A stretch of DNA of 63,327 nt, filler included, from Myxococcota bacterium (GTDB lineage: Bacteria; Myxococcota_C; UBA6777): assembly GCA_023150835.1 (NCBI GenBank). It is 3 parts of 3 records of this genome, joined end to end, with 100 filler letters (N's around TTAATTAATTAA, not from the genome) between each part and the next. Parts side by side here need not be neighbours in the genome. Positions count along the whole stretch, not along the records: positions 29,636 to 58,694 come from JAKLKB010000083.1; 2 more parts are not named here. One strand, written 5' to 3'. The translations under genes were made by a program, and so were the position numbers. Within the stretch, counting starts at the first letter, position 1; every line of letters starts with the position of its first letter. The notes beneath the pieces are model-generated. The model was not told where the DNA came from. It was given only the letters and a program-made list of their open reading frames with translations, and did no database searches. This document shows positions 23,817-58,794 of the stretch, piece after piece.

Positions 23817-26800
23817 TCAGGAAGAAAAGAAGCCTTTGAAGAGGTCGCGCAGAGCGCGAGGGAGTTTGTCGCCGAGGGTGGCGGAGAATTCTTCCCAAAG
23901 GGTTTGGAGCAGCCAGTCGCTGATCTCGTGGAGACGTTGGATCTGTTCGATCAGTGCGATGAGTAGACGGCGGGTATCTTGGAGGGGGAGGGTGGCGATC
24001 TCTTTGACAAGGCGCTGGATGATAGCGCGGCAAGGGCCGGTGGCTCCGATGCGTGCGAAGGCAAGCAGAGCATCGGTGAGATAGGCGATGCCGGTGGTTT
24101 GGTGGTCGGGGTGGGCGAGATGGAGATCGGCAAGGGACTGATAACTGAGTGCGATGCCAAAGCCCGATTGAAGGCGATCGCGGTTGATGGCGAGGGCTTG
24201 TTGGAAGTGTTCTTTGGCCGCGTCCCATTCGGTGGCATCGGGGATATCTTGTTTGGTGAGTAGTTTGGCGCATTGGAGGTGTGCTGCGCCAAGGCCCGAA
24301 AAGGACATCGCCATCCCAAGGAAGTCGTTGAGCGCACGTTTGGCTTGGATGGAGCCTTCAAAAGATTCGGCGGCTTGTTGGAGTTGTTCGAGGCTTTGGG
24401 TGGGGTTGTCGTCGAGCGTCGCCAAACCAACGAGGATACGAGCGAGATTGTCGTAGGCTTGGGCAAGAAGTTCGGTCTGCTCGCTGCTGCGGTGCGCAAG
24501 AGTCCGTTGCAAGGCGTCTTCTGCAAGTTGTCGTGCATCCAACAGCAAAGCGCGCTGTTGTTCTTTTGGGAGGGATGCGTGTTGGGTCTCAAAGGCGCGG
24601 CGTTTGACGGAGCTTTGGAGATGGCGGATCCAAGCGCGATGGGGAGAGCGTTCTTCGATGCTCTCGCTCTGCTCGTTTTCTTGGAGCAGAGACCATGCAC
24701 GATCGAGAGCGGTTGCGGCTTCTTCGGGATGGTTGGTGTCGAGTTCGTAGATCCCGAGAAAGCGCAACACGACGGCTTGTTGAGCAGGATCTTTGGTTTG
24801 TTCTTGGATGCGTTGGAGAGCTGATAGATAAACGACGCGCCCTTCTTCATAAGCGCGCTGGCTGAGGCGTCCTCCCGATTCTTGGGCCAGCAGCTTACGT
24901 TTGTTGTCGGCTCGTGCAAGCAAAAGCTCGGTCATCTCTTGCGGAAACGCGATCAGCTGATCGGCATACGCAGGGCGATCGAGCAACAAGCCGAACAATG
25001 CGTCGACTTCGATGTACTGCCCTCGGCGTCCCAAGGCTTGTCCGAGTTCTTGGAGCAAGACCAGATCCCCTCGCGAGATCTCTTTGAGGACCACATCAAG
25101 CACGCCATTGTGGCGCGTTAAAGCCCGAACATCGAGGTTTTGTAGCGCACGAAACAAAATGTAGCGATTGCGTTGCCCAAGGCTTGTGCTGCGATCGTTG
25201 AAATCAGCAACGGCTTGAAAGGCGTGCTCCTCGATCAACCGCAACAAGATCAACGCCAGCGCTCCTTCGAGCGGTCGGAAACGATCGCTGTGCTCGGCCA
25301 TCGCCAACAACCACCCCACAGGATCTTTTTGCATCAAAGATCCTTCCGATCGGCCCGCGTGTTGCGAATCGCGAGGCTCCCTCTGGTCGTCTTCCGTGTC
25401 TTGCGTGTGTTGCGAATCGCGGGACTCCCTCTGGTCGTCTTCCGTGTCTTGCGTGTGCTGCGAAGCGCGGGACTCCCTCTGGTCGTCTTCCGTGTTTTCC
25501 GTGTCTTCCGTGGACTCTTCTTGTGTTGTTGTCTCTGTTGGTTTTGCGGTGGGATTGGGGTGGATGGTTTCCCAGTCGACGGGCGGGAGGGAGTGCCAAT
25601 CGATCTTGTGGGTCCAGAGTTCAAGGAAGACGAGGTATTCTTGGAGTTGTAGGGAAGCAAAGCCAACGGTGCGCAGGGGTCGATCGTGGGGTGTACGCCA
25701 TTGGCGCAGGAGGATACCGCGAGCGCGGAGGTCGTCGTAAACGGTGGTTCCGTATTTGAAGCTATCGAGGAAAGGTGCGAAAGCGGCTTCGGAGAGCAGG
25801 GTGGCTTCGGGGAGGAGGGCTTGCGAGTCCCAGAGGTGGGGGGAGTGGTAGATATCGCTGTTGCCATAGAGCATGCGACAGATCAGGAGAGAGAAGAAGT
25901 CGCGTTCACCTTCTTGGAAACGTTCTATATAGAGTTCAAAGAGGTCGGTGAGGTGGATATCGTCTTTGAGTTCTTTGCGGTGATAAGTTTCCATAACGAC
26001 GGGTAGAAGGGAGGGATGTGCGAGGATGGAGCGTGTCATGCCAAAGCGTTCGAGTTCTTGGATATCGGCGCGTTCGGGGCGGTAGCGTGGTGTGCCGCTG
26101 GTGTCGGTGTAATTGTAGAAGCGTTGGTAAGCGCGGAGCAGTTCGGGTCGTTCAGTTTGGTTGTCATCGCGGAAAGGAGGAAGAGATTGGAGTACACCGT
26201 GAACACCGCTGCGTTCGCGGTAGAAGAGTTCTTGGGGGGGGTGGAAGCTGCCGTTGCGGAGAAAAGACCGCATAGAAGGGTCGTGGAGATGGTGTTCGAG
26301 GAAGCTGCGTCGAATGGAGAGGAAGAGGCGGAACCAAGGGTGAGATCGATGGAGTTTTTGTGCGAGAAGAAGGGCCTCTGCAAAGCGTTGGATGCCGTGT
26401 TTTGGGGTTTCGTGAAAGCCGTCGATGTAGAGGCAAAATTGGGGTCGATCTTCGTTCTGTTTGCGTTGGACGTGGAGGTCAGGATCGAAGAGGCTGCGGA
26501 AGTGTTTGAAGATCTTGAGTAGAGATTGTTCGGGGCGCTTTTGTTGGGCGAGTTGTTCTTCGGGGGAGGATTGGATCTGGAGTTCATGGTAGAGCCATGT
26601 GGCGAGGTTTTGATGGGGTGCAAGGAGTCCGATATCCAAGAAGAAAGTGTAGCGTTTTTCGGGTGGTTTGCGTTCACGGTTGGCGCGGACTTGCAAACGT
26701 GCGTGTTGGAGCAAGAGCAAGGTGTGGCCCATGCCGGCTTCACCGGCGAGCAAGAAGACGTTGGGGGCGTCGATGCGCTCATTTTCGAGGAAGTTGTCGA

Positions 26801-29535
26801 GTTTTTTGGCGTCATCGCGTTCGACCAAAAGGGCTTCTTGTTCGCGCAGGCGGCTACGTGCGAAGACTTGGCGGAAACTGGCGCGGGAGCGTTTTTCGAG
26901 AAACAACAGGTCGATGCCTTCGAGGGTACGGCTTTCTTGCATCTCGCGCAGTTGGGCGAGTTGGTTTTCCCATTCGAGGCTATCGGTGAGGGATAGGGGG
27001 CTTTGCCAGTAATCGCGGTTGTCGCTGTGGCCGATGGCGCGGAGGTGAAGTTGCGGGCTGCGGTTGATGTTGTAAGCCCACCAGAGGGCTTTGGGAAGAT
27101 GTCCATGAAGTAGGCGTTGGGGTTGGGGAGGGGGATTCCAAGAAAGCTGTAGGGCAGGGGAGAGGCGGAGTGGAGTGAATTGTTCGTAGGTGAGATAGAG
27201 TTTGTGTGCTTCAAGATGAGAGGGTGCATCGTGGAGGGGTTGGAGCCAAGGGGTGACGCCGCTCATGGTGATCTGCCACCAAGAGGCGCGAGGTGCATCG
27301 TGTGTCGTCGAGGGATCGGGGAAGCAAAAGAAAAAGGTGGGTCGGGCGGCCATTCCTTCGCTGTATCGGAGCAAGGCGCGATGGAGGATCTGGGTGTAGC
27401 GAGAGAGTAGGTCTTGGAGGCGCAGAGAACGTTGGGTGAGATCGTGGCCGAGGGCTTCGGGTCGGAGGGCTTCTTTCATCTCGAAAAAGATCTGGAGGGG
27501 ACTGGCTTGGGCGGTGCCTTCGGGGGATGTAGGTGGTTGTTGTGAAGCGGTCCATTGTGCAAAGCGATGAAAAGGCGCGATCCAGCTATTGGGATCTTCG
27601 AGGGTGGGGATTTGCGCAAAGAATTCTTTCCATCCTTGGGGATCTTCGAGAGAGAGTTTTTCGAGAGCGTCGGTGTATTCAGGGGTTCGCTCGAAGCCTT
27701 CACCTTCGAGGTAGGCGGAGACAAGGATCACCGCGTTGAAATGTTGGAGGCTCCAAAAAGTGTCGTGGATGGTCTGGAGCTTGCGCAAGATCAAGTCTTC
27801 TGCGGATTGAAGTTGTTGGCGGTGTTGGCGGTAGAGGTCGCGTTGCTGTTGGAGAGCATCGCCTTGTAAGGGGGCTTGTTTGGCTTGCTGTTGGAGAGCA
27901 TCAAGTTGTTGAGCGAGTTGAGACAGGGTGTTTTGGATGTGTTGGCGGGCGTATCGTTGTTGGGTGACTTGGTGGAAGAGGCGGGCGACAGGCCAAGGAA
28001 AGCTGAGTCGTACAAGCGAAGCAAGAGCGACGGTGGCTTCAGGCGTTTGAGGATCTTGGCAGACGGAAGAAAGCAGTGATTGGGCGATGGGGAGTCCAGC
28101 GTTGGGGTGGCCGCTGGCTTGGTCGGCATACCCCATCGCACGCAAGATCGCCAAGCGAAGCGTGGGAGCGGCTTTTCGTAAGTTGGCGAGTTCTTGGATC
28201 GCGGTGTCGATGCCGATGTGACCGAGTGCATCAAGAATGGTGTGGAGCTGTTCGTCTGGAGAAGAGACAGCAGATGCGGCAAATGGATCGGTGGGATCGG
28301 AGATGACGGAGGATTCGAGTGGAACGGTGGTTTTGGATGTGGCGGTTTCGGAGATGGCGGAGGATTCGAGTGGAACGGTGGTTTTGGATGTGGCGGTTTC
28401 GGAGATGACGGAGGATGCGAGTGGAGCGGTGGTTTTGGATGTGGCGGTTTCGGGGATGGCGGAGGATTCGGGTGGGGTGGGTTGTAAGGCTTGAAGAGCG
28501 AGCAGGAGTTCTTGTGTGGTGGATTGCCAGATGGGAAGGTCTCCATCGAGGGCGGGGCGTTGTAGTCGTGCGATGGAAAGGATGGAACGTGTGGCAGCGA
28601 GCCGAATTACGGGTGAGGGTTCGCGTAGGAGGGTTTGGAGGACAAAGAGGGCGCGGTTGCGGAGTTGCCAGATCTGTTCGCTGGTGAGGAGTTCGGTTTC
28701 GATATCGCTGAGGGCGACGCTGTGTTCGCCATAACGGACGGAACGCTCAACGACGCGAGCGATCTCTTGGAGTATACGGGCGCGGATGGCATCTTCGGGG
28801 GGGATGAACAACCAACGGACCCAAGGCCCGAGGATAGGCCAATTGCGGAAAGCGTAGAGTCTTCGCCATCGGTCGGTTCGGAGGGTGGGGGCTGCGATGC
28901 CGATCAGGGCCTCAAGAGCCCAAGCGCGATCTTGCATATTTCCGATTAAGTTGATCTGTTCTTCGCGGAGTATTCGGCTCCATCGCTCTTCGGGGGGCAT
29001 GGGTGTGGGTTTGAGGAAGGGCAGGAGGCGCGGAAGGGCGCGGGTACGCATCCATTGAAAAAACCAGATCAGGCCAGCGAGAGGGTCGAGCAGCGCGTGG
29101 TTGCCTTTGACGCCGCGCACAAGGAAAGCGGCCCAGATACGGGGATAACTATCGACAGTGCGTTGGATGCTGTCTTGGTGTTGTTTGAGGGGGTGGGCAG
29201 CGTTGGCGTCGTTGGCGTCGACAGCTTCTCGGTTGACGCGGATGCCGAGAAAGGAATCCATCAGGAGCAGGTAGATCAGCAAAAGTCGCTTGGCATAAAA
29301 GAAGATCAGAAGGGCGCGAAGCAGCGAGCCAACAAGCGTATAGCCCGCACCAAGAGCGAGGTATTCGGGTTGGCCGGTCGAAGGGCTGTAGACGAGCTTT
29401 TGCGTGTGTGCATCGCGAGCGTGGATCTGGCCGATGACAGTAAATCGTAGCCAGTCGGTGAGCGTGGGGCGCAAGAGTTGATCGGAGGGTGCGGAGGGGA
29501 GGGAGGGTGCGGAGGGGAGGGAGGGTGCGGAGGGG
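23817..29535 (-). CDS. Giant HEAT-like, STAND-like NTPase and TPR protein; 5' end lost at the contig break
   Basis: Open frame of more than 1885 aa running into the gap; FLLAGEAGMGHT and LYIDGFHE; C-terminal TPR-like helices; internal 48-bp and 51-bp repeats. Confidence 0.7.
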
Positions 29536-29635
29536 NNNNNNNNNNNNNNNNNNNNNNNNNNNNNNNNNNNNNNNNNNNNTTAATTAATTAANNNNNNNNN
29601 NNNNNNNNNNNNNNNNNNNNNNNNNNNNNNNNNNN
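29536..29635. other. Artificial contig linker
   Basis: N44-TTAATTAATTAA-N44, with stops in all six frames. Confidence 0.97.
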
Positions 29636-30024: not shown

Positions 30025-30936
30025 TCACGGCACAAATTGTTGTTTGCCTGTGACGAGCAGATCCGAGGCGGGCGGAGGGATCGTTTCTTCGATGGATTGG
30101 CCGTTTGTGGCCGTCAAGCGAAGGCGCAACGGCTGTGTTCCCGCTCCCTTGGCATCGAGAAAATAATTGTAGCGTTCTCGTGGCAGGCTCTGCCATTGGT
30201 TGTTTTTGAAAAGCTCGACCTGTTTGAGCGGTAAGCGATGATTGCGCACTTGGATCGCCGTCCACCACTGCGAAGACCCGTCCTTGTAATGGTATTGGAT
30301 CGGCCCGACCTCTGGGCAAGAAACCACCTGCCACGTGATCGCGATCACCCCCTGCACAGGATCGCCGATCTTCGCGAATGCTTCGCGGCTTAGATCCAGA
30401 TGCCCTTTTGAACACTCAGGACAACGATCCGTGATCCGCACCAACACGCTTCCCTTCGGTCCATCCACCTTCACGCACGCACCGCAATAATCGGCCATCC
30501 CATACTCTTGTTCGTTCATCGCAGCCACCAACGGCACAGACACCGATGGAAAGCTGCAATTGCCCGAACCATCGGCATCATAATACGTCGCTTTGCCTTG
30601 ATGGATCACCGCATCTTTCCACGTTTCAGAAGGCCCATCCAACGGCTGTTCTGGCACCTTTTCTGCGATCTTCTCGGGCGGATCGCTCTCCGACACCCCC
30701 TCTGCCATCGCTTCTTTGATGGCTTCGCTCGTCTCGGACACCGTCTCCACCATGACGCGCTCCTCTGTCCCCGCGTCAACCTCCCCGTCCTGCGCATATT
30801 CCTCCCGCTGTTCGGTGCTTTGCGACTCCGTTGCTGCCTTTTCTTCGGTTTTCGGAGAAATCCCCTCGCACCCCCACACCGATCCCACAAACAAAACACA
30901 TCCGATCCATCCAATCACCCACGCCATCGGCCTCAT
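30025..30936 (-). CDS. Bacterial expansin (EXLX1/YoaJ-like) lipoprotein
   Basis: GKATYY..GNCSF, CGACV, ITDRCPEC..HLDLS..AF, KDGSSQWW..QVRNH; VWG-C lipobox and acidic linker. Confidence 0.9.
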   Translation of the reverse strand: MRPMAWVIGWIGCVLFVGSVWGCEGISPKTEEKAATESQSTEQREEYAQDGEVDAGTEERVMVETVSETSEAIKEAMAEGVSESDPPEKIAEKVPEQPLDGPSETWKDAVIHQGKATYYDADGSGNCSFPSVSVPLVAAMNEQEYGMADYCGACVKVDGPKGSVLVRITDRCPECSKGHLDLSREAFAKIGDPVQGVIAITWQVVSCPEVGPIQYHYKDGSSQWWTAIQVRNHRLPLKQVELFKNNQWQSLPRERYNYFLDAKGAGTQPLRLRLTATNGQSIEETIPPPASDLLVTGKQQFVP

Positions 30937-31108
30937 CGCATCATCCCTCCATCACAATCCGCTCCCCGCAAACACACAGGCAGCGCACCACGATAACGCG
31001 GATCACCCAAAAAACAAAAGACATCCACTCCACAACCCCCACTCCACAACCCCCCCTCCGTTATCCACAACCCGATCTTCCCGATCACAACACCCCCAAA
31101 AAGATCGT

Positions 31109-31128
31109 GATCCGATCGTGATCGGATC
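31109..31128. promoter_or_regulatory. GATC-rich palindrome in the divergent intergenic region
   Basis: GATCCGATC-GT-GATCGGATC; function inferred only. Confidence 0.35.
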
Positions 31129-31339
31129 GATCAAAAAAGAAAGAAAGCATAACGTCCTGTATTCCCAAAAGAAAAAAATTTTACATCTTCGATTGAATAT
31201 GCTTGTGACGATCCAGTCTTATAGCAACGAATCGACACGATGTGGTTCGCTGGTTGTGAAGTCACAATCAGTCTGTTTCACGGTCCCCCTTGGAGGTGGC
31301 AACATCGCCACCCCGCAACCCCTTCGAGGAGTCTCTGTC

Positions 31340-31861
31340 ATGAAAAAATTGCTCGTCGCAATGTTCGCTGGCGCTCTCGTCGCTGCTTTCTCCCTCACCG
31401 CACAAGCTGAAGTTCTCGGCTTCCGCAACTACTACAAGCCACCGAAATCCAACTGCAAAGGCCATTGCACCACCTCTTGCCGCAACTTCCGCACCACCAA
31501 GTGCAAAAACGTCCTCCAATGGAAAACCAAGTGCTCCACCCATTTCCGCACTTGGGGCAAAAAGTGTCAAACCTACGTTCAAAAACGCACCATCTGTTCG
31601 CCTTTGAAAAACTGTCACCAAAGCTGCATCCGTTTCGTCAATGACAAAGGCGCTTACATCAAGTGCTTCGGCAAACTCAAGTGCAAGTATATCCCCAACT
31701 GCCGCACCGGCTACTTCGGTACCCGCACCGTGTGCAGCCCCATCCGCACCAGATACACCCATTGCACCAAAACCCCCGTGTGGACCCGCCGCTGCACCAC
31801 CGCAACCAAGCCCGGCTGGTGCGTGACCAAGTGCTCCAGCATCTGCGTCACCCGCCGCTAA
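31340..31861 (+). CDS. Secreted cationic 18-Cys protein
   Basis: GAGGAG RBS, signal peptide MKKLL..AQA, C-ending codon bias, terminator downstream. Confidence 0.85.
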   Translation: MKKLLVAMFAGALVAAFSLTAQAEVLGFRNYYKPPKSNCKGHCTTSCRNFRTTKCKNVLQWKTKCSTHFRTWGKKCQTYVQKRTICSPLKNCHQSCIRFVNDKGAYIKCFGKLKCKYIPNCRTGYFGTRTVCSPIRTRYTHCTKTPVWTRRCTTATKPGWCVTKCSSICVTRR

Positions 31862-31909
31862 TCACTTCCGCCTTGTGCGGTGTGTAAGGCTCGGCTGAAT
31901 ACAGCCCTC

Positions 31910-31944
31910 AAAAAGCCCTTCTCCCACAAAGAGAAGGGCTTTTT
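31910..31944. terminator. Bidirectional intrinsic terminator
   Basis: AAAAAGCCCTTCTC-7 nt loop-GAGAAGGGCTTTTT between convergent genes. Confidence 0.85.
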
Positions 31945-31967
31945 GCATTTCCGAAAAAGCCCACCGC

Positions 31968-32945
31968 TTAACGGCGGAACGGCAGAGTAGGCGAAGAAGT
32001 CGGCGGTGTAGAGACACCGCAGGCGGCTCCACTAGAGGGGGTGGCGTCTGTACGACAAGCCTGCCCTTCATTTCGAGGAGCCGCGTTGCTGGAGTGCAGG
32101 TTGGTGGGGCGAGAGGACGCAGGAGACAGCGGAGTCGAAGGCATCGGCAAAACACCCAAACCACGGCACTGTTCGCCTGTGAGCAACGCAAGCGCCTGAT
32201 GCAACGAAGCCCTTCGCTGATAGCCAATCAATCGTGCGACTTCGTACCCTTGGGGGTTCACGAAGGCAAAGGTTGGAACACCACGGATCTGATAACGTTG
32301 GGCGAGATGTTGGTGCTCAGGGCGGCTGATATCGATCTTGATCACTTCGACTCCTTTTTGGGGATCGTTGCACTCTTGCTCGATGGTCGCCACGATCGGG
32401 ATCATTTGGCGGCAGATCGGACAATTCGACGAGACGAATTCGACCATCCGAGGGCGTGTTTGTGCATTGGCGATCTGCGTTTTTGCGGTGCTTTGGATGG
32501 CTTGGCTGAGCGGGTTGGGACGAGACAGATCACGCGAAGCGGAAGGCGCGGATGCTGTAGGAGCTTGAAGCACACTAAACATGACGTAGATCCCGACTCC
32601 AGCAAGCAAAGCGCCTGTACCTCGCTCGATCCGAGGTAGCCATTGCATAAATCGCCGTAGATACGGCAGCAACGTACCCGCACCCAAAGAAGCCAACCAC
32701 AACGGCGTCGCAAACCCCAATCCGTACAACAACAAAAACCACGCCCCCATCCAAGGATCGCTGGTTTTTGCAGCCGTGTATGTCAACACCGCCCCAAGGA
32801 TCGGCCCCACACAAGGCGTCCATCCCAACGCAAACACAAAGCCCATCACAAAACTGTTCAAAACTCCCGTTGATAGGCCCAAGCTGCGATCATCGATCCG
32901 TTTTTCGCGATTCAACAAATCAAGATGCAAGACCCCCAAAAACTT
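31968..32945 (-). pseudogene. ccdA: CcdA/DsbD-beta plus thioredoxin fusion, 5'-truncated
   Basis: FALGWTPCVGPILG and CPIC thioredoxin are present. Homology begins abruptly at KFLGVLHL, and the first TM helices and first Cys are missing. Confidence 0.65.
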
Positions 32946-33019: not shown

Positions 33020-34153
33020 TCAGGGTTTTTGAAGTATTTGACGGTAGTCATTGCCGCGAACAAAAAAGATGCGGCACATCTCATGGAGGCGGGAATAGAT
33101 GCGGTCGCCGACGCGATCGCGAAGTGTATCGCGGCTGAGGAATTCTTCGCTGTCGATGTGTCCACGTCCTCGGCTACGTTCGCGCAGCGTGGTTTCGGGA
33201 TCGAGTGTGTAGTTGGTGGTGATCAGCGTGGTGCGACCGGCATTGTAGCGGCAAGAGATCAGCGTATCGATGATGCCAAGCTCCCACTTGCTGTTGCGGC
33301 CTTTGCCGAGATCGTCGAGCAAAAGGACATCGATATCAACCAGCGGTTGAAGGATGTGCTGTTCAGGGACATCGCGGGTGTAGCCATCGCGCATGTCTGA
33401 AAGCAGCAGTCCAAAGTCTTGGAAACGACAAGCGATCCCGCGTTCGAGGATCAAGTTGCGCAAAAAGCCGACCATCAGGTGCGTTTTGCCGACACCGGGC
33501 GAACCCATCAACAAAACCCCCGCATCACCGGGCTTGAAAGAGCGATTGGAGGTCGGATCGTAATAAAGTTTGTAAAAGTGAGCGCGGGCTTTGGCTTGGC
33601 TATCGTCGTTTGGAGCGAAGGCATCAAGCGTTTTGTCTGCAAAACGCGACGGGATGTGCGCCGCACGATAAAGCTCCATCCGTCGGGCAAGTTTGCGACA
33701 ATCACAAGTCTTCCATGCGCGGTTGCCGCTTTCAAGAGAGATGATGCTGCCCCCCTCTCCGTTGCATTGGGGGCAGATCTCCGCTTGGCAGCTACAGAGC
33801 TTGACGTCGGCTTGGGATTCGGCTGCAAACGTCAAGTAGCCCTTCCATTCGCAACGTGGGCAGTTTCCAAAGAATTTGTTTTCTTCGACGGGCTTTTGCG
33901 CGGGACTGGCTTTGACGTTGACGCGGTAAAAGCTCGTGGGTTGTCCTTGAACACGCGCACGAGGAAGCTCCCGCGAAGCTTCTGCAATCTGCGGCTCATC
34001 AGAGGCCGGTGCTTCGGCGTTTTTTGGATTGTGCGACGGATCTTCTTTGGTTTCGGGAAACACGATCTGTTGGGGAACGATCTTTTGGTTTGTGCGTGTG
34101 CGGTAGGGGCTACGTGCAGGAAGTTCGTAGCGATTCAAGGGATTGTTGGACAT
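33020..34153 (-). CDS. DnaC/IstB-family AAA+ ATPase with N-terminal Cys (Zn) modules
   Basis: CPRC..CSC..CPQC..CDC, IPSRFADKTL, GSPGVGKT, LLLDDLG, DRIYSRLHEMC. Confidence 0.85.
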   Translation of the reverse strand: MSNNPLNRYELPARSPYRTRTNQKIVPQQIVFPETKEDPSHNPKNAEAPASDEPQIAEASRELPRARVQGQPTSFYRVNVKASPAQKPVEENKFFGNCPRCEWKGYLTFAAESQADVKLCSCQAEICPQCNGEGGSIISLESGNRAWKTCDCRKLARRMELYRAAHIPSRFADKTLDAFAPNDDSQAKARAHFYKLYYDPTSNRSFKPGDAGVLLMGSPGVGKTHLMVGFLRNLILERGIACRFQDFGLLLSDMRDGYTRDVPEQHILQPLVDIDVLLLDDLGKGRNSKWELGIIDTLISCRYNAGRTTLITTNYTLDPETTLRERSRGRGHIDSEEFLSRDTLRDRVGDRIYSRLHEMCRIFFVRGNDYRQILQKP

Positions 34154-34276
34154 CGTGGTCGGTCTCCATACGCGACCCCCAAAGTATCGCCGCCGATCAG
34201 GGGTGTCAAAGGGAGGCGGGGGAGAAGCGTCACAATCCGAAGACAAGACGGGGAGTTGAGCAAAAAGGCCGGATTA

Positions 34277-34469: not shown

Positions 34470-36215
34470 TTATTCGGGAGAATGGCGTCGGAAGGCAGCG
34501 AGAAGGAAAACCGCCCCGATGGCAGCGAGAAGCAAAGAAAGCGTGACGGGGATCACTTGGGAGGGGGGCGGGGGGAGTAGTTCGCCCACGCGCAGGATCA
34601 TGCTGTGTTCGGGAAAACGCACGCCTAGTTTTCGAAGGGCAGGGATCTCGTTAACGTTGATATTTTCATCGGGTAATTCGAGTTCAAGCGGCCCGGACGG
34701 GCGCAAACGCAAGGTCTTGAGAAGGCCCGTGTAGGTGCGCGCTGCGGGGACGTGGTTTGGATCTTGGAGGTCATCTTGCCAAACGGGTAAGCGCGTTATG
34801 CGGTCGGGTTCTTCGGGGTTTGTGACCACATCCTTCCATTCTTTTAAGATCTGCGATGCTTGTACAGGAGCAAGGATCAAAAGCTGCCGATGTTCGCGAT
34901 CTGCAAACAACGCGTAAGATTCGACTTTTTGGGTCTTTGGAACTCGAACGGAGAGGATCGCAAAGGTCATCCGATCAGGGCGCACCGCGATCTGTGCGAT
35001 ACGAAACGAAGTGACGGTCTTGTTCGAGACTTCGGAGGCTTGCATGATCTGAGGGGAAGAGGGAGCCGAGGGGCCACCCGAAAAAAACAGCGCATAACCA
35101 AGCCACAAAAGGCCGAACAAAAGCAGCACTCCGCCTGACACCGCCATCCCGAGATGCGGCCCCGTCGCCAGCGGAGCCGCCACTTCTTCCTCGATGTCGT
35201 CTTCCCATGCTTCCGATGCAGGGATCGACGGAGGAGCGGTTCGGACAGAAGAAGCCGATGCGTTTTCCCCCACAGACGGCACAGGCCGCGCAGAAGAAGC
35301 TGCCAAAACGCCTGAATCATCCGCCTTTTCAGTCGAGGGCGGCAACGAAACGGAGGCTGCTTTGGTTTTCGTAGAAGGGGCTTTTTGGGGGGGCGACGCT
35401 TTTTGGGTAGATGAAGCTGTTTTGGAACCCAAAGCATCGGTCTTTGGAGTGAGCGGGTCTGCTTTTGGAGAGGAAGCCAAAGCATGGATGGCGTCGGATT
35501 TTTGAGAAGAAGGAGAAGACGGCGTAGCCTCAGAGGGAGAAGCCTTTGCCTCGGCAGGTGCGGATGCAGCAGGCTTTTGGGTGGGCTTGGAAGGAGCGGG
35601 AGGGCTGGGTTTGTTGCTGCGTTGTTGTGCAAACAAATTGAGGATGCGGGATTCTTCACAGGGTCGGATCTGCATAAACCCCAAATCGACGAGCAGATCG
35701 CGCAGATCGGCGGGCGGTGCAAACATGACTTCGAGGACAAAAGAAGGCTGTTTTTTGGGATAACGCTTACGAAATGCGGAAGACGTGGTGTAGGCGATAG
35801 CGATCTGGACGCGCTCGCGGAGTTGACGCATCAAAAAAGGGTCCGCCTCCCAATCCAAGGGTTGAATCAAGATGATCTCTGCGAGCGTACCGCTTTCTTG
35901 CACACGATCGATGGCGGCGGGTGGGCCTTCTTCTTCGGGATCAAGAGGTCGAAGTTCGATGCCCTCCGTGACCAACCAACGGCGGATCTCAGGGGGAGGA
36001 GCAAACATAGTTTCGAGGATGATCTGTGCGGAGTGTGCGCGATATTGGATGCGAAACTGCGGATCGGCGAGTTGTTCTTGCTGCTTTGCAACCCGCTCCC
36101 GCAGAGATTTGACAAGATGAGGCTCCGTCTCCCACTCTTTTGGTTGAAGAAAAACAAGCTCAATTCCACCGTCTTGTGCGCGCTGAATACGATCGGCTTG
36201 GGCATTGAAGACCAT
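34470..36215 (-). CDS. Membrane protein with a duplicated N-terminal domain, Pro/Ser linker and two TM helices
   Basis: DR(I/V)Q..LQP..WE..P.L...LRERV..LE..FAPP occurs twice; GGAG RBS. Confidence 0.7.
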   Translation of the reverse strand: MVFNAQADRIQRAQDGGIELVFLQPKEWETEPHLVKSLRERVAKQQEQLADPQFRIQYRAHSAQIILETMFAPPPEIRRWLVTEGIELRPLDPEEEGPPAAIDRVQESGTLAEIILIQPLDWEADPFLMRQLRERVQIAIAYTTSSAFRKRYPKKQPSFVLEVMFAPPADLRDLLVDLGFMQIRPCEESRILNLFAQQRSNKPSPPAPSKPTQKPAASAPAEAKASPSEATPSSPSSQKSDAIHALASSPKADPLTPKTDALGSKTASSTQKASPPQKAPSTKTKAASVSLPPSTEKADDSGVLAASSARPVPSVGENASASSVRTAPPSIPASEAWEDDIEEEVAAPLATGPHLGMAVSGGVLLLFGLLWLGYALFFSGGPSAPSSPQIMQASEVSNKTVTSFRIAQIAVRPDRMTFAILSVRVPKTQKVESYALFADREHRQLLILAPVQASQILKEWKDVVTNPEEPDRITRLPVWQDDLQDPNHVPAARTYTGLLKTLRLRPSGPLELELPDENINVNEIPALRKLGVRFPEHSMILRVGELLPPPPSQVIPVTLSLLLAAIGAVFLLAAFRRHSPE

Positions 36216-36241
36216 CACAAACTCCGAATAATAGGGGGGTT

Positions 36242-37123
36242 CTACTGACGCAACTCTTCTTGAAGAACGTGCATCCCTTCGCGCACTTCGCGAAACAACC
36301 AAGCGGCTTTGGAAAAAAACTCGGAAAAGACCTTGTGTTGGCGCTTATGAAGTTCAAGCATCTGTGTGCTTGCGCGTCGAAATGACCTCGATATCTCGTC
36401 ATCCCCACGCAGCGGACATTGTTTCAACAGCACATCCATCCGATGCTGCCAATCACGCGACCAGTCCTGCCAAGCCGTCAAATAATAACGATTCCCTCGC
36501 CGCACCCGAAACCATAAGTTTTTCGATTCTTGTTCCATCTCTTGATCGAGTCTTCGCAGACGCGCCACGCAAGTACGCAACCGATGCGGTGGCATCACAT
36601 AGCCCTTGCGTTCGGTGTTTTCGAGCGGGATCCAGACTTGTGGGGGTGCATGAACAGCCCGATAGATCGAAACAAAGATCGAGATCACCACCACGCCCGC
36701 AAACAGGCCAAAGCAGATCAACGCCACCAAACGCCCAAATCGTTGCGCTTCCTTTAAGGCGATCTGCTCGGGATCAAGGGGCTCTTCGACCTTTTTTTCC
36801 TGCCCCGCCTGCCAAGGGAAATACACCTCTTTGATCGGATTGCTCGGAGCGGCTTCGCTGCTCTTCGCGGAGGCGGCTTCTTGTGTTGCGTCGGGCGTTC
36901 TTTCGGCCCTTTCTTCGTGGGCGGCTTCTTGGGCGACGTTGGGCATCGACTCAACCTTTTTTTCGAGGGCGGCTTCGCTGCTTTTTTGGAAATAGGCTTC
37001 GCCAGTCTCTTCGCGAGCAACGGATCCGCTGTGAAGCGTTCTTGCCGCATCTTCCGCGACTTCAGCGATAGGTATCTCCGTAACGTGCAGCATGGACGGT
37101 GTAGACGGCTTTTGTTGCGGCAT
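36242..37123 (-). CDS. Hypothetical single-TM protein
   Basis: AGGAG RBS, acidic N-terminus, TM helix, helical C-terminus. Confidence 0.7.
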   Translation of the reverse strand: MPQQKPSTPSMLHVTEIPIAEVAEDAARTLHSGSVAREETGEAYFQKSSEAALEKKVESMPNVAQEAAHEERAERTPDATQEAASAKSSEAAPSNPIKEVYFPWQAGQEKKVEEPLDPEQIALKEAQRFGRLVALICFGLFAGVVVISIFVSIYRAVHAPPQVWIPLENTERKGYVMPPHRLRTCVARLRRLDQEMEQESKNLWFRVRRGNRYYLTAWQDWSRDWQHRMDVLLKQCPLRGDDEISRSFRRASTQMLELHKRQHKVFSEFFSKAAWLFREVREGMHVLQEELRQ

Positions 37124-37325
37124 CGCGTTCGATCTCCTGCATAGAAAACACCTCACCAGAACGAAAAGGTGGATGGCCCCTGCCTTGCGAAAAAACGCAC
37201 ACAAGCTAACGCAGAACCAAGCCGTTGGGAAGAGCCATCGCAGCCACCCCACGCAGCAGCGGATCCGCATCGGTGAAGGTCATGGGGTGATTCCCCCTCA
37301 AAGCCACTTCGCGGCACGCATCCGT

Positions 37326-58694: not shown

Positions 58695-58794
58695 NNNNNN
58701 NNNNNNNNNNNNNNNNNNNNNNNNNNNNNNNNNNNNNNTTAATTAATTAANNNNNNNNNNNNNNNNNNNNNNNNNNNNNNNNNNNNNNNNNNNN
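58695..58794. other. Artificial contig linker
   Basis: N44-TTAATTAATTAA-N44. Confidence 0.97.

Follow-up and report, generated by a model that had tools for sequence, protein, structure and literature searches.

The DNA analysed here (the window, 63,327 nucleotides of the Myxococcota bacterium assembly GCA_023150835.1) consists of three contigs joined by N runs (29536-29635 and 58695-58794). The middle contig carries a gene for a cationic, Cys-rich protein together with its neighbours. We call the gene and its product the ladder gene and the ladder protein, after the ladder of disulfides that the product probably forms. The open reading frame (ORF) occupies 31340-31861 on the plus strand, with an ATG at 31340 and a stop codon at 31859-31861, and encodes 173 amino acids. 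Residues 1-23 (MKK...TAQA, 31340-31408, +) form a putative Sec-type signal peptide that is kept in orthologs. Signal peptides have an n-h-c layout and are cleaved according to the AXA rule. Cleavage after AQA (residue 23), with E as the next residue, was read from this layout and rule and not from a predictor.

The mature chain of 150 amino acids (31409-31858, +) contains 18 Cys, with gaps of 3,3,7,9,10,9,5,3,[12],5,5,10,9,9,8,3,3. Nine Cys, from Cys39 to Cys96, lie on an N arm (31454-31627, +) and nine, from Cys109 to Cys169, on a C arm (31664-31846, +). Between the arms is a central 12-residue turn, IRFVNDKGAYIK (31628-31663, +). A CxxxCxxxC cap stands at each end, formed by Cys39, Cys43 and Cys47 on the N-terminal side (31454-31480, +) and included in the C arm on the C-terminal side (31820-31846, +). 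The chain is polycationic, with 22 Thr, 19 Lys, 18 Cys, 14 Arg, 8 Ser, one Glu and one Asp (K+R 33, D+E 2) and a net charge of about +31. It is rich in Thr, Val, Tyr, Trp and Gly and poor in Ala, Leu and Glu, and the motifs CxxC, CC and CxxCH are absent. A recount reproduced exactly the ORF, the 150-residue mature chain, the 18 Cys and the gap list of the original prediction, whose description of a K/R/T-rich chain with only two acidic residues also agrees with these counts.

The same prediction gave the gene its own ribosome-binding site (RBS) and terminator, and both are present. The RBS, GAGGAG (31326-31331, +), is 8 nt ahead of the ATG and is conserved across species; its AGGAGT core is invariant in a three-species alignment, the two others keeping the core. 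Downstream lies a two-way terminator hairpin (31909-31945), shared with the convergent thioredoxin gene, with a folding free energy (dG) of -23.2 kcal/mol on the plus strand and -25.7 kcal/mol on the minus strand. It is followed by TTTTT and has a z of -6.15 against shuffles on the plus strand. A simple terminator scan did not list this hairpin, probably because flanking A/T runs lengthen the stem. An Rfam search returned below-threshold matches only, all of them on the hairpin. A consensus promoter scan found no sigma-70-like site upstream of the ladder gene. Nested GATC-rich palindromes (GATCGTGATCCGATCGTGATCGGATCGATC) occur at 31100-31130, in the divergent promoter region between the ladder gene and the DPBB gene described below.

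The ladder ORF is a real gene under selection in its frame and is present in RNA libraries. The ratio of nonsynonymous to synonymous substitution rates (dN/dS) is 0.43 against a 95%-identical ortholog and 0.44 against a 54%-identical ortholog, with 18 of 18 Cys kept. An antisense ORF of 164 amino acids (31268-31762) was rejected as a gene; its dN/dS is 1.4-1.5, and the codon make-up accounts for its being open. In ten RNA runs, drawn from four studies of sludge and bioreactor communities, 44-75% of the sampled words of this stretch are present. Contigs were compared in four runs, one per study, over 4.6 kb around the ladder gene. In run X5 the interval 31246-31905 is covered by three mismatch-free contigs at a depth of 908-2161, and the neighbouring genes by four mismatch-free contigs at a depth of 4-5.1. 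Run X17 has one ladder-gene contig at a depth of 80.5 and two more divergent contigs of the neighbours at a depth of 2. Runs X6 and X12 have zero cover on the neighbouring genes and were given no weight. These depths are a strong hint of high expression of the ladder gene. They are a hint and not a measurement, because contig depth measures expression poorly, the runs were chosen for containing the ladder gene and the contigs are unstranded.

The ends of the RNA contigs fall close together. They start at 31245 in X6, where adapter letters precede, at 31246 in X5 and at 31256 in X12, and they end at 31904-31907, with adapter letters adjoining 31904/31905 in X5 and X6. Because adapter letters flank both 31245 and 31904/31905, a single-gene RNA of about 660 nt is suggested. 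It would begin with an apparent 5' untranslated leader (31245-31339, +), the direction of which is taken from the gene. The apparent 3' end falls just ahead of the terminator hairpin, not beyond it.

The original prediction described the Cys spacing of the mature chain as nearly palindromic, and this is upheld by shuffling. The mirror statistic, the summed difference between mirrored gaps, is 5. The symmetry is beyond chance, because an equally mirror-like arrangement was reached in 2 of 100,000 gap shuffles and was never reached when 18 Cys were placed at random 100,000 times. The gap list is also nearly symmetric within each half, and a direct 9-gap shift also fits fairly well (mean difference 1.375). 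A tandem duplication of the two halves was considered and rejected. There is no residue similarity between them in direct orientation (z 1.30, a score reached by 50 of 500 shuffles).

With 22 Thr, 8 Ser and 18 Cys in 150 residues, and with two nearby ORFs that have no family, the Cys could conceivably serve something other than disulfides, as in the precursor of a lanthionine-type modified peptide or in a metal-binding protein. We regard this as scarcely credible. The N-terminus reads by rule as a typical Sec signal and not as a leader peptide, and none of the neighbours assigned to a family is a modifying enzyme. Neither idea would give meaning to the regular 10-residue spacing or the symmetry of the arms, and the chain is devoid of the CxxC, CC and CxxCH motifs.

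The ladder protein has no match above noise in Pfam, NCBIfam or the PDB sequences. The rows below threshold in the family searches were Spectrin (0.0026), PAN_3 (0.17), Rep_trans (0.26) and SIK3 (0.81). In the ESM Atlas the best score was 0.82, a level that shuffled proteins also reach. A near-length search of 5.8 billion clustered proteins returned one other protein only (75% identical), a HMMER search of 1.84 billion representatives of all lengths one further relative (43%), and a scan of JGI metagenomes two additional family loci. The GTDB phylum of this genome consists of six metagenome-assembled genomes (MAGs), all from one family, and a profile of the ladder family finds a match in every one of them. 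Matches in 35 genomes of other lineages were at chance level only (E above 0.01). In these searches the ladder family is confined to a single small lineage, of phylum rank, whose MAGs are labelled Myxococcota. In the open-access literature no account of such a bacterial family was found.

Each genome carries 3-5 ladder paralogs. Four types are recognized, A (the protein described here), B, C and D, and some B and all D chains contain two modules. The largest relatives have 472-588 amino acids, two modules and up to 11+11 Cys. No common theme was found in the genomic contexts of the paralogs. The context of B includes a gamma-glutamyltranspeptidase, an acyl-CoA dehydrogenase and a sigma factor, and that of C an HD protein, PhoD, a VWA protein and kinases. 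The gamma-glutamyltranspeptidase gene (L039:4872-6701, -) lies about 500 bp downstream of a B-type ladder gene (L039:7218-7742, -) on the same strand, and a link to thiol or cysteine supply is possible. Just upstream of a C paralog, between the HD-domain gene and the C-type gene, is a long run of short repeats (L003:976-1460, G000:C106) that is open in several frames (RLF, SVS and EET/ETE repeats). The C- and D-type relatives (L003, L022, L023, L033 and L037) have a very basic tail after the ladder modules, with two extra Cys 35 residues apart. The tails end acidic, often with a final Phe (...DEGDDF, ...DKDEEF, ...NNEEF, or an Asp run), and type A has no tail. Such a tail could be a charge-masking or sorting element.

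The paralogs provide the main evidence on how the Cys are paired. The turn was set by residues independent of Cys (xxGWxxxx in types C and D, and [IV]N[ND][EK], which is conserved in types A and B), and the Cys were counted outward from it. The number of Cys is equal on both arms in 19 of 21 modules (15 proteins), the arms are of nearly equal length, and their sizes across modules are 5+5, 9+9, 10+10 and 11+11. In types C and D the gap pattern is perfect (3,3,7,9xN,[9],9xN,7,3,3, with N = 6 or 7), and the second modules (9x9,[9],9x9) are uncapped at either end. The CxxxCxxxC caps are found at both ends of a module or at neither. Where a rung was gained in one species, it was gained on both arms together (7+7 vs 6+6). 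Every module of the family consists of two arms with a conserved turn between them.

The residues between the Cys agree with a nested register. N-arm rungs read like C-R-D-Y-T-R-W-Q-T-Q and C-arm rungs like C-x-x-V-P-Q-R-Y-x-R, and in an antiparallel nested alignment the N-arm Trp at +6 stands opposite the Pro at +4 of the partner C-arm rung. The agreement between Trp and Pro is 0.89 in the nested register (shift 0), 0.69 and 0.76 when the arms are slid by one rung, and about 0.5 when they are slid by two. Among 92 nine-residue rung pairs from 11 proteins, a count that left out two near-identical orthologs and two asymmetric B proteins, 58 of 58 Trp rungs are opposite a Pro rung; 24 pairs have neither residue and 10 have Pro only. 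In the ladder protein itself the positions of nested partners sum to 162,162,162,161,161,162,161,161,159. The sums stay close to a single register, interrupted by a few bulges of one residue and, beside the turn, an offset of two.

In a two-stranded antiparallel ribbon, disulfides form at non-hydrogen-bonded pairs and the residues of that parity point their NH outward. By the geometry of beta sheets, a Pro at such a site costs no cross-strand bond and blocks the open edge. Within gaps of even period, Pro falls on the Cys parity in 96 of 96 cases. The composition as a whole has a period of two, with W, T, P, N and G enriched on the Cys parity and Y, V, H and most R on the other.

Facing Cx9C and Cx3C spacings are also described as the hallmark of helical hairpins, in which two long antiparallel helices are stapled by such pairs, as in mitochondrial twin-Cx9C (CHCH) proteins or plant alpha-hairpinins, and a poor single-sequence model of the ladder protein has a helix at residues 36-51. 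A helical hairpin is nevertheless very improbable here. The period of the composition is two and not 3.6, almost all C-arm rungs contain a Pro (96 in total), and the chain is Thr/Val/Tyr/Trp/Gly-rich and Ala/Leu/Glu-poor. The model based on an alignment is all strand, and Pfam CHCH is not matched.

This alignment-based model was obtained with AlphaFold and eight family sequences. The best model has a predicted local distance difference test (pLDDT) score of 67.7, with 82 residues at >=70, and is one long hairpin. Its strands are 39-84 and 92-101 on the N arm and 104-115 and 123-169 on the C arm, with the reversal at residues 102-103, within the central turn. The strands start on the first Cys and end on the last, and paired strand ends sum to i+j = 205-208, the nested register. 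In a Foldseek search of the PDB one match had an E below 0.001, the upper tail of Staphylococcus phage Andhra (8egr_I, E 4.3e-4, TM 0.20). Lower matches were the stems of the lysenin, aerolysin and anthrax-toxin pores, the lysenin pore being second. An exhaustive VIA-align search reached a maximum Z of 3.2 on the stem of the anthrax protective-antigen pore. Neither search found a solved relative, only other very long hairpins at low scores.

Several observations weigh against a nested ladder in a single chain. The other four of the five AlphaFold models have a pLDDT of 30-37, and the single-sequence prediction, with a pLDDT of 36.8, places its helix over residues 36-51. The ladder protein needs one-residue bulges (periods 11, 11 and 9) as well as the two-residue offset near the turn. 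B-type proteins of a single module have 10 + 9 Cys, an odd total of 19, in three assemblies (G000:C220, L002:1417-2019:-; P0003; and L042, one metagenome contig). A strict ladder fails to explain this count, unless the assemblies collapsed a tandem duplication. In the 19-Cys form, the first part resembles the front half of module 1, and the rest the back half of module 2, of a 357-residue two-module B protein in the best-assembled genome (G002). Short-read assembly may therefore have collapsed a tandem duplication, or the form may be real and have one free Cys. Because the members of the family are kin, modules and rungs cannot be counted as independent events. The disulfide connectivity, the export and the oligomeric state of the ladder protein are, moreover, inferred.

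The odd Cys count and the failure of four of five AlphaFold models to find the hairpin could also mean that the arms pair antiparallel between molecules, or not one-to-one, to give dimers, sheets or a disulfide network such as a cross-linked coat or matrix. Both edges of a free two-stranded ribbon are open, and open edges of this kind favour association. Cys-rich envelope proteins cross-linked by disulfides, the YTV proteins, are described from planctomycetes (PMC8567305). However, a conserved tight turn lies at the exact centre of each module, and an antiparallel dimer needs no central turn. The confident AlphaFold model is a monomeric hairpin, and the Pro on every C-arm rung at outward sites looks like a design against association of the edges. 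Pairing between molecules is quite improbable on this evidence. A self-association run with two copies of residues 24-173 scored 0.22 against a mark of 0.42 and counts neither way on binding.

The nested-ladder fold is well supported, if not proven, by the symmetry of the paralogs, the rung register, the parity, the partner sums and one model. Each ladder module is thus probably one very long antiparallel two-stranded ribbon in which Cys at the same rank from the turn, one on the N arm and one on the C arm, are bonded to each other. In the ladder protein there would be nine nested disulfides, C1-C18 through C9-C10. The Cys would all lie on one face, at non-hydrogen-bonded sites spaced about ten residues apart. 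In the intervals between rungs, N-arm Trp would stand opposite C-arm Pro, and on the other face Tyr would stand opposite Tyr, Phe or His. If each residue adds about 3.3 A, arms of about 60 residues would give a stiff rod about 20 nm long and 1 nm wide, and the longest modules would reach about 30 nm. The original prediction had proposed nine nested bonds in one ribbon, with structure prediction as a check. The evidence from arm symmetry, Trp-Pro register, parity and partner sums favours that proposal. Structure prediction was divided, with one of five models a long hairpin in nested register and four poor, and the odd Cys count of one subtype stands against a strict version. The prediction had also named membership of a known family as grounds for giving it up, and no Pfam, NCBIfam or PDB family matched.

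The divergent neighbour of the ladder gene (30025-30936, -) encodes a putatively secreted DPBB (expansin/RlpA-like) protein (Pfam DPBB_1, 2e-12), which likewise lies upstream in the species of the 54%-identical ortholog, with one gene inserted between. The convergent neighbour (31968-32939, -) encodes half of a DsbD/CcdA membrane domain fused to a thioredoxin (Pfam DsbD_TM 2.4e-12, Thioredoxin 3e-12). A CcdA-thioredoxin fusion of full length (436 amino acids) is again the convergent neighbour of the 54%-identical ortholog (G002). DsbD/CcdA-thioredoxin proteins bring reducing power to the periplasm. The ladder gene and the CcdA-thioredoxin gene do not form an operon. The local fusion (323 amino acids) keeps only the second half of the membrane domain, and the short form recurs in the close relative G001 (97% identity over 323 amino acids). 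This short form may be a truncated gene or a working half-transporter in this lineage.

The neighbours that have families are the DPBB and DsbD_TM-thioredoxin proteins, an IstB-like ATPase, a phosphoesterase and a methyltransferase; two nearby ORFs have none. The IstB/DnaC-like ATPase (33020-34246, -) is Cys-rich and zinc-ribbon-like at its N-terminus. With 82% identity between species of the genus, it is the best-conserved gene of the neighbourhood. Three large ORFs of the window have no Pfam family at E 0.001. These are located at 23817-29474 (-, 1885 amino acids), 34470-36302 (-, 610 amino acids) and 36242-37270 (-, 342 amino acids).

The genome of the ladder gene (G000) has 19 DsbA-domain matches and one VKOR, and DsbB was not found in it. 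One frame of 1426 amino acids (L043, G000:C128:49308-53228, -) consists of a membrane anchor and seven tandem DsbA domains, with CPFC in each and a spacing of about 190 residues. Another frame (L044, G000:C113:8976-10580, -) is a VKOR-DsbA-DsbA fusion. G000:C40 and G000:C83 were listed with L043 and L044 for unusual DsbA architecture. Across the phylum, each of the six genomes has 12-27 DsbA matches, some in frames of up to 1701 amino acids, compared with 0-7 in 35 unrelated genomes that are smaller and not size-matched. The DsbA-chain architecture may be linked to the ladder proteins. The ladder protein would be oxidized after export by this unusually large DsbA/VKOR set, and the neighbouring CcdA-thioredoxin protein could supply reducing power for proofreading of a substrate with nine disulfides.

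The considerations on function are the transcript level, the signal peptide, the charge of about +31, Arg/Lys together with Tyr/Trp on both faces, the variation in rung number, the paralogs and the fast change outside the Cys. The ladder protein, as an abundantly made, rigid polycation with many Arg/Lys and Tyr/Trp residues, may act by binding polyanionic polymers or surfaces outside the cytoplasm, as a strut or adhesive of the envelope or floc matrix. We hold this role to be possible and put it forward tentatively. Candidate targets would be lipopolysaccharide, peptidoglycan-associated anions, extracellular DNA and exopolysaccharide, and the rung number would set the length of the rod. As an explanation of the whole, we lean slightly towards the ladder fold combined with such a polyanion-binding rod.

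Some results count against a purely structural role. With the Cys frame invariant, the dN/dS of the ladder gene is 0.43-1.0, which is high for a highly expressed gene, and that of the neighbouring genes is 0.07-0.19. A ratio of this kind looks like that of a protein in an arms race. The caveat on contig depth given above also applies to any argument from transcript level. Ordinary peptidoglycan genes are present in the organism (penicillin-binding proteins and Mur ligases), so nothing points to the need for a protein wall, and a protein wall replacing peptidoglycan was rejected on these grounds.

As the main alternative, the same fold could be a weapon, a giant protegrin-like polycation that, once released, binds and breaches the anionic envelopes of prey or competitors, with the paralogs and the fast loops as products of an arms race. 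The lineage is labelled Myxococcota, a group known for predation, and fast change on a fixed Cys frame is the pattern of defensin- and toxin-like families. With this pattern of change, a weapon fits almost as well as a polyanion binder. The protein is cationic with a signal peptide, there are 3-5 paralogs per genome, the transcript is well represented, and the idea of nested disulfides is common to the known hairpin antimicrobial peptides (PMC13001179). On the other side, the ladder protein is 7-9x longer than the hairpin antimicrobial peptides of 16-21 residues treated in that source. Neither of its faces is clearly hydrophobic, with K+R at 24% of the even positions and 39% of the odd ones, and this together with its sheer size makes it unlike the known hairpin peptides. 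No immunity, export or lysis gene is evident among the nearby genes, and the variation in repeat number resembles the tuning of length. We consider a weapon rather unlikely. The original prediction had named an antimicrobial, a predation effector and a fibre subunit as possible roles; high transcript level and fast change outside the Cys are compatible with several roles.

A wider proposal, speculative and distinctly unlikely, is that this phylum invented a protein material. It would consist of nanometre-thin cationic beta-ribbon rods of 20-30 nm, with lengths set by matched rungs on the two arms, made in bulk and zipped one rung at a time by the membrane-anchored seven-DsbA protein as a dedicated oxidase, which VKOR-DsbA-DsbA would recharge. 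If this is true, the ladder and poly-DsbA proteins are one lineage-specific system that builds a disulfide-stapled extracellular or periplasmic scaffold or weapon, without counterpart in known bacterial cell biology. The co-occurrence of ladder proteins with chains of seven or more DsbA domains raises the question of how many ordered disulfides are formed in one chain. In wastewater sludge, few transcripts of its organism appear to be as strongly represented as that of the ladder gene, and an abundant extracellular polycation could matter for floc formation or predation in treatment plants.

Other long hairpins and Cys-rich proteins resemble the ladder protein in part. The stems of pore toxins and the tail knobs of phages share with the ladder protein, as predicted, a very long two-stranded hairpin. 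They differ in that they occur only inside oligomeric barrels, are free of disulfides and are amphipathic, and the likeness is one of shape and not of kinship because the scores are at noise level. Twin Cx9C (CHCH) proteins and CX3C alpha-hairpinins are helix-loop-helix structures with two bonds, made in nested order between facing Cys motifs. Like both of these, the ladder protein has Cx9C/Cx3C motifs facing each other on two antiparallel segments. Unlike them, it is predicted to form strands (by the period of two, the rung Pro and the model), with 9-11 rungs.

The YTV proteins of Planctomycetales are lineage-restricted, Cys-rich and exported, and are reported to be among the most abundant proteins in envelope preparations (PMC8567305). 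The ladder protein is likewise lineage-restricted, Cys-rich and predicted to be exported. A weak look-alike cluster in the ESM Atlas (score 0.76) carries YTV on 10% of its members. Membership in YTV (PF07639) was rejected, as neither the ladder protein (P0001) nor five relatives gave a profile match at E up to 10. A search of the own genome with the YTV profile returned nothing above the 21-bit cut-off, the best match (E 0.209, 15.3 bits) being at another locus. YTV proteins are not known to have a mirror Cys pattern.

The closest comparison is with the cystine-ladder hairpin peptides of animals, which have 16-21 residues and 1-3 bonds (PMC13001179) and among which the theta-defensins are described as having a cystine ladder (PMC6327110). 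Like protegrins, tachyplesins, arenicins and theta-defensins, the ladder protein is cationic and is putatively a single hairpin tied by parallel nested disulfides. Unlike these peptides, it has 150 residues, nine putative bonds, a bacterial origin and a Sec signal, and no sequence relation to them. It is also not clearly amphipathic in the manner of those peptides; the two parities differ in residues (W, T and P on one, Y, V and H on the other), but K+R is high on both (24% and 39%). It perhaps works like the cystine-ladder peptides; it lies outside the size range that delimits their family and is not a member. If the ladder is true, this is by far the longest beta hairpin in nature to be stapled by disulfides; a module of the family has 9 to 11 rungs, and the known peptides have three or fewer. 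The family would then offer a natural series of rung numbers, a model for soluble, straight ribbons and a template for stiff rods of set length. The ladder protein would represent the known hairpin-ladder principle at an unprecedented scale and with a modular rung count.

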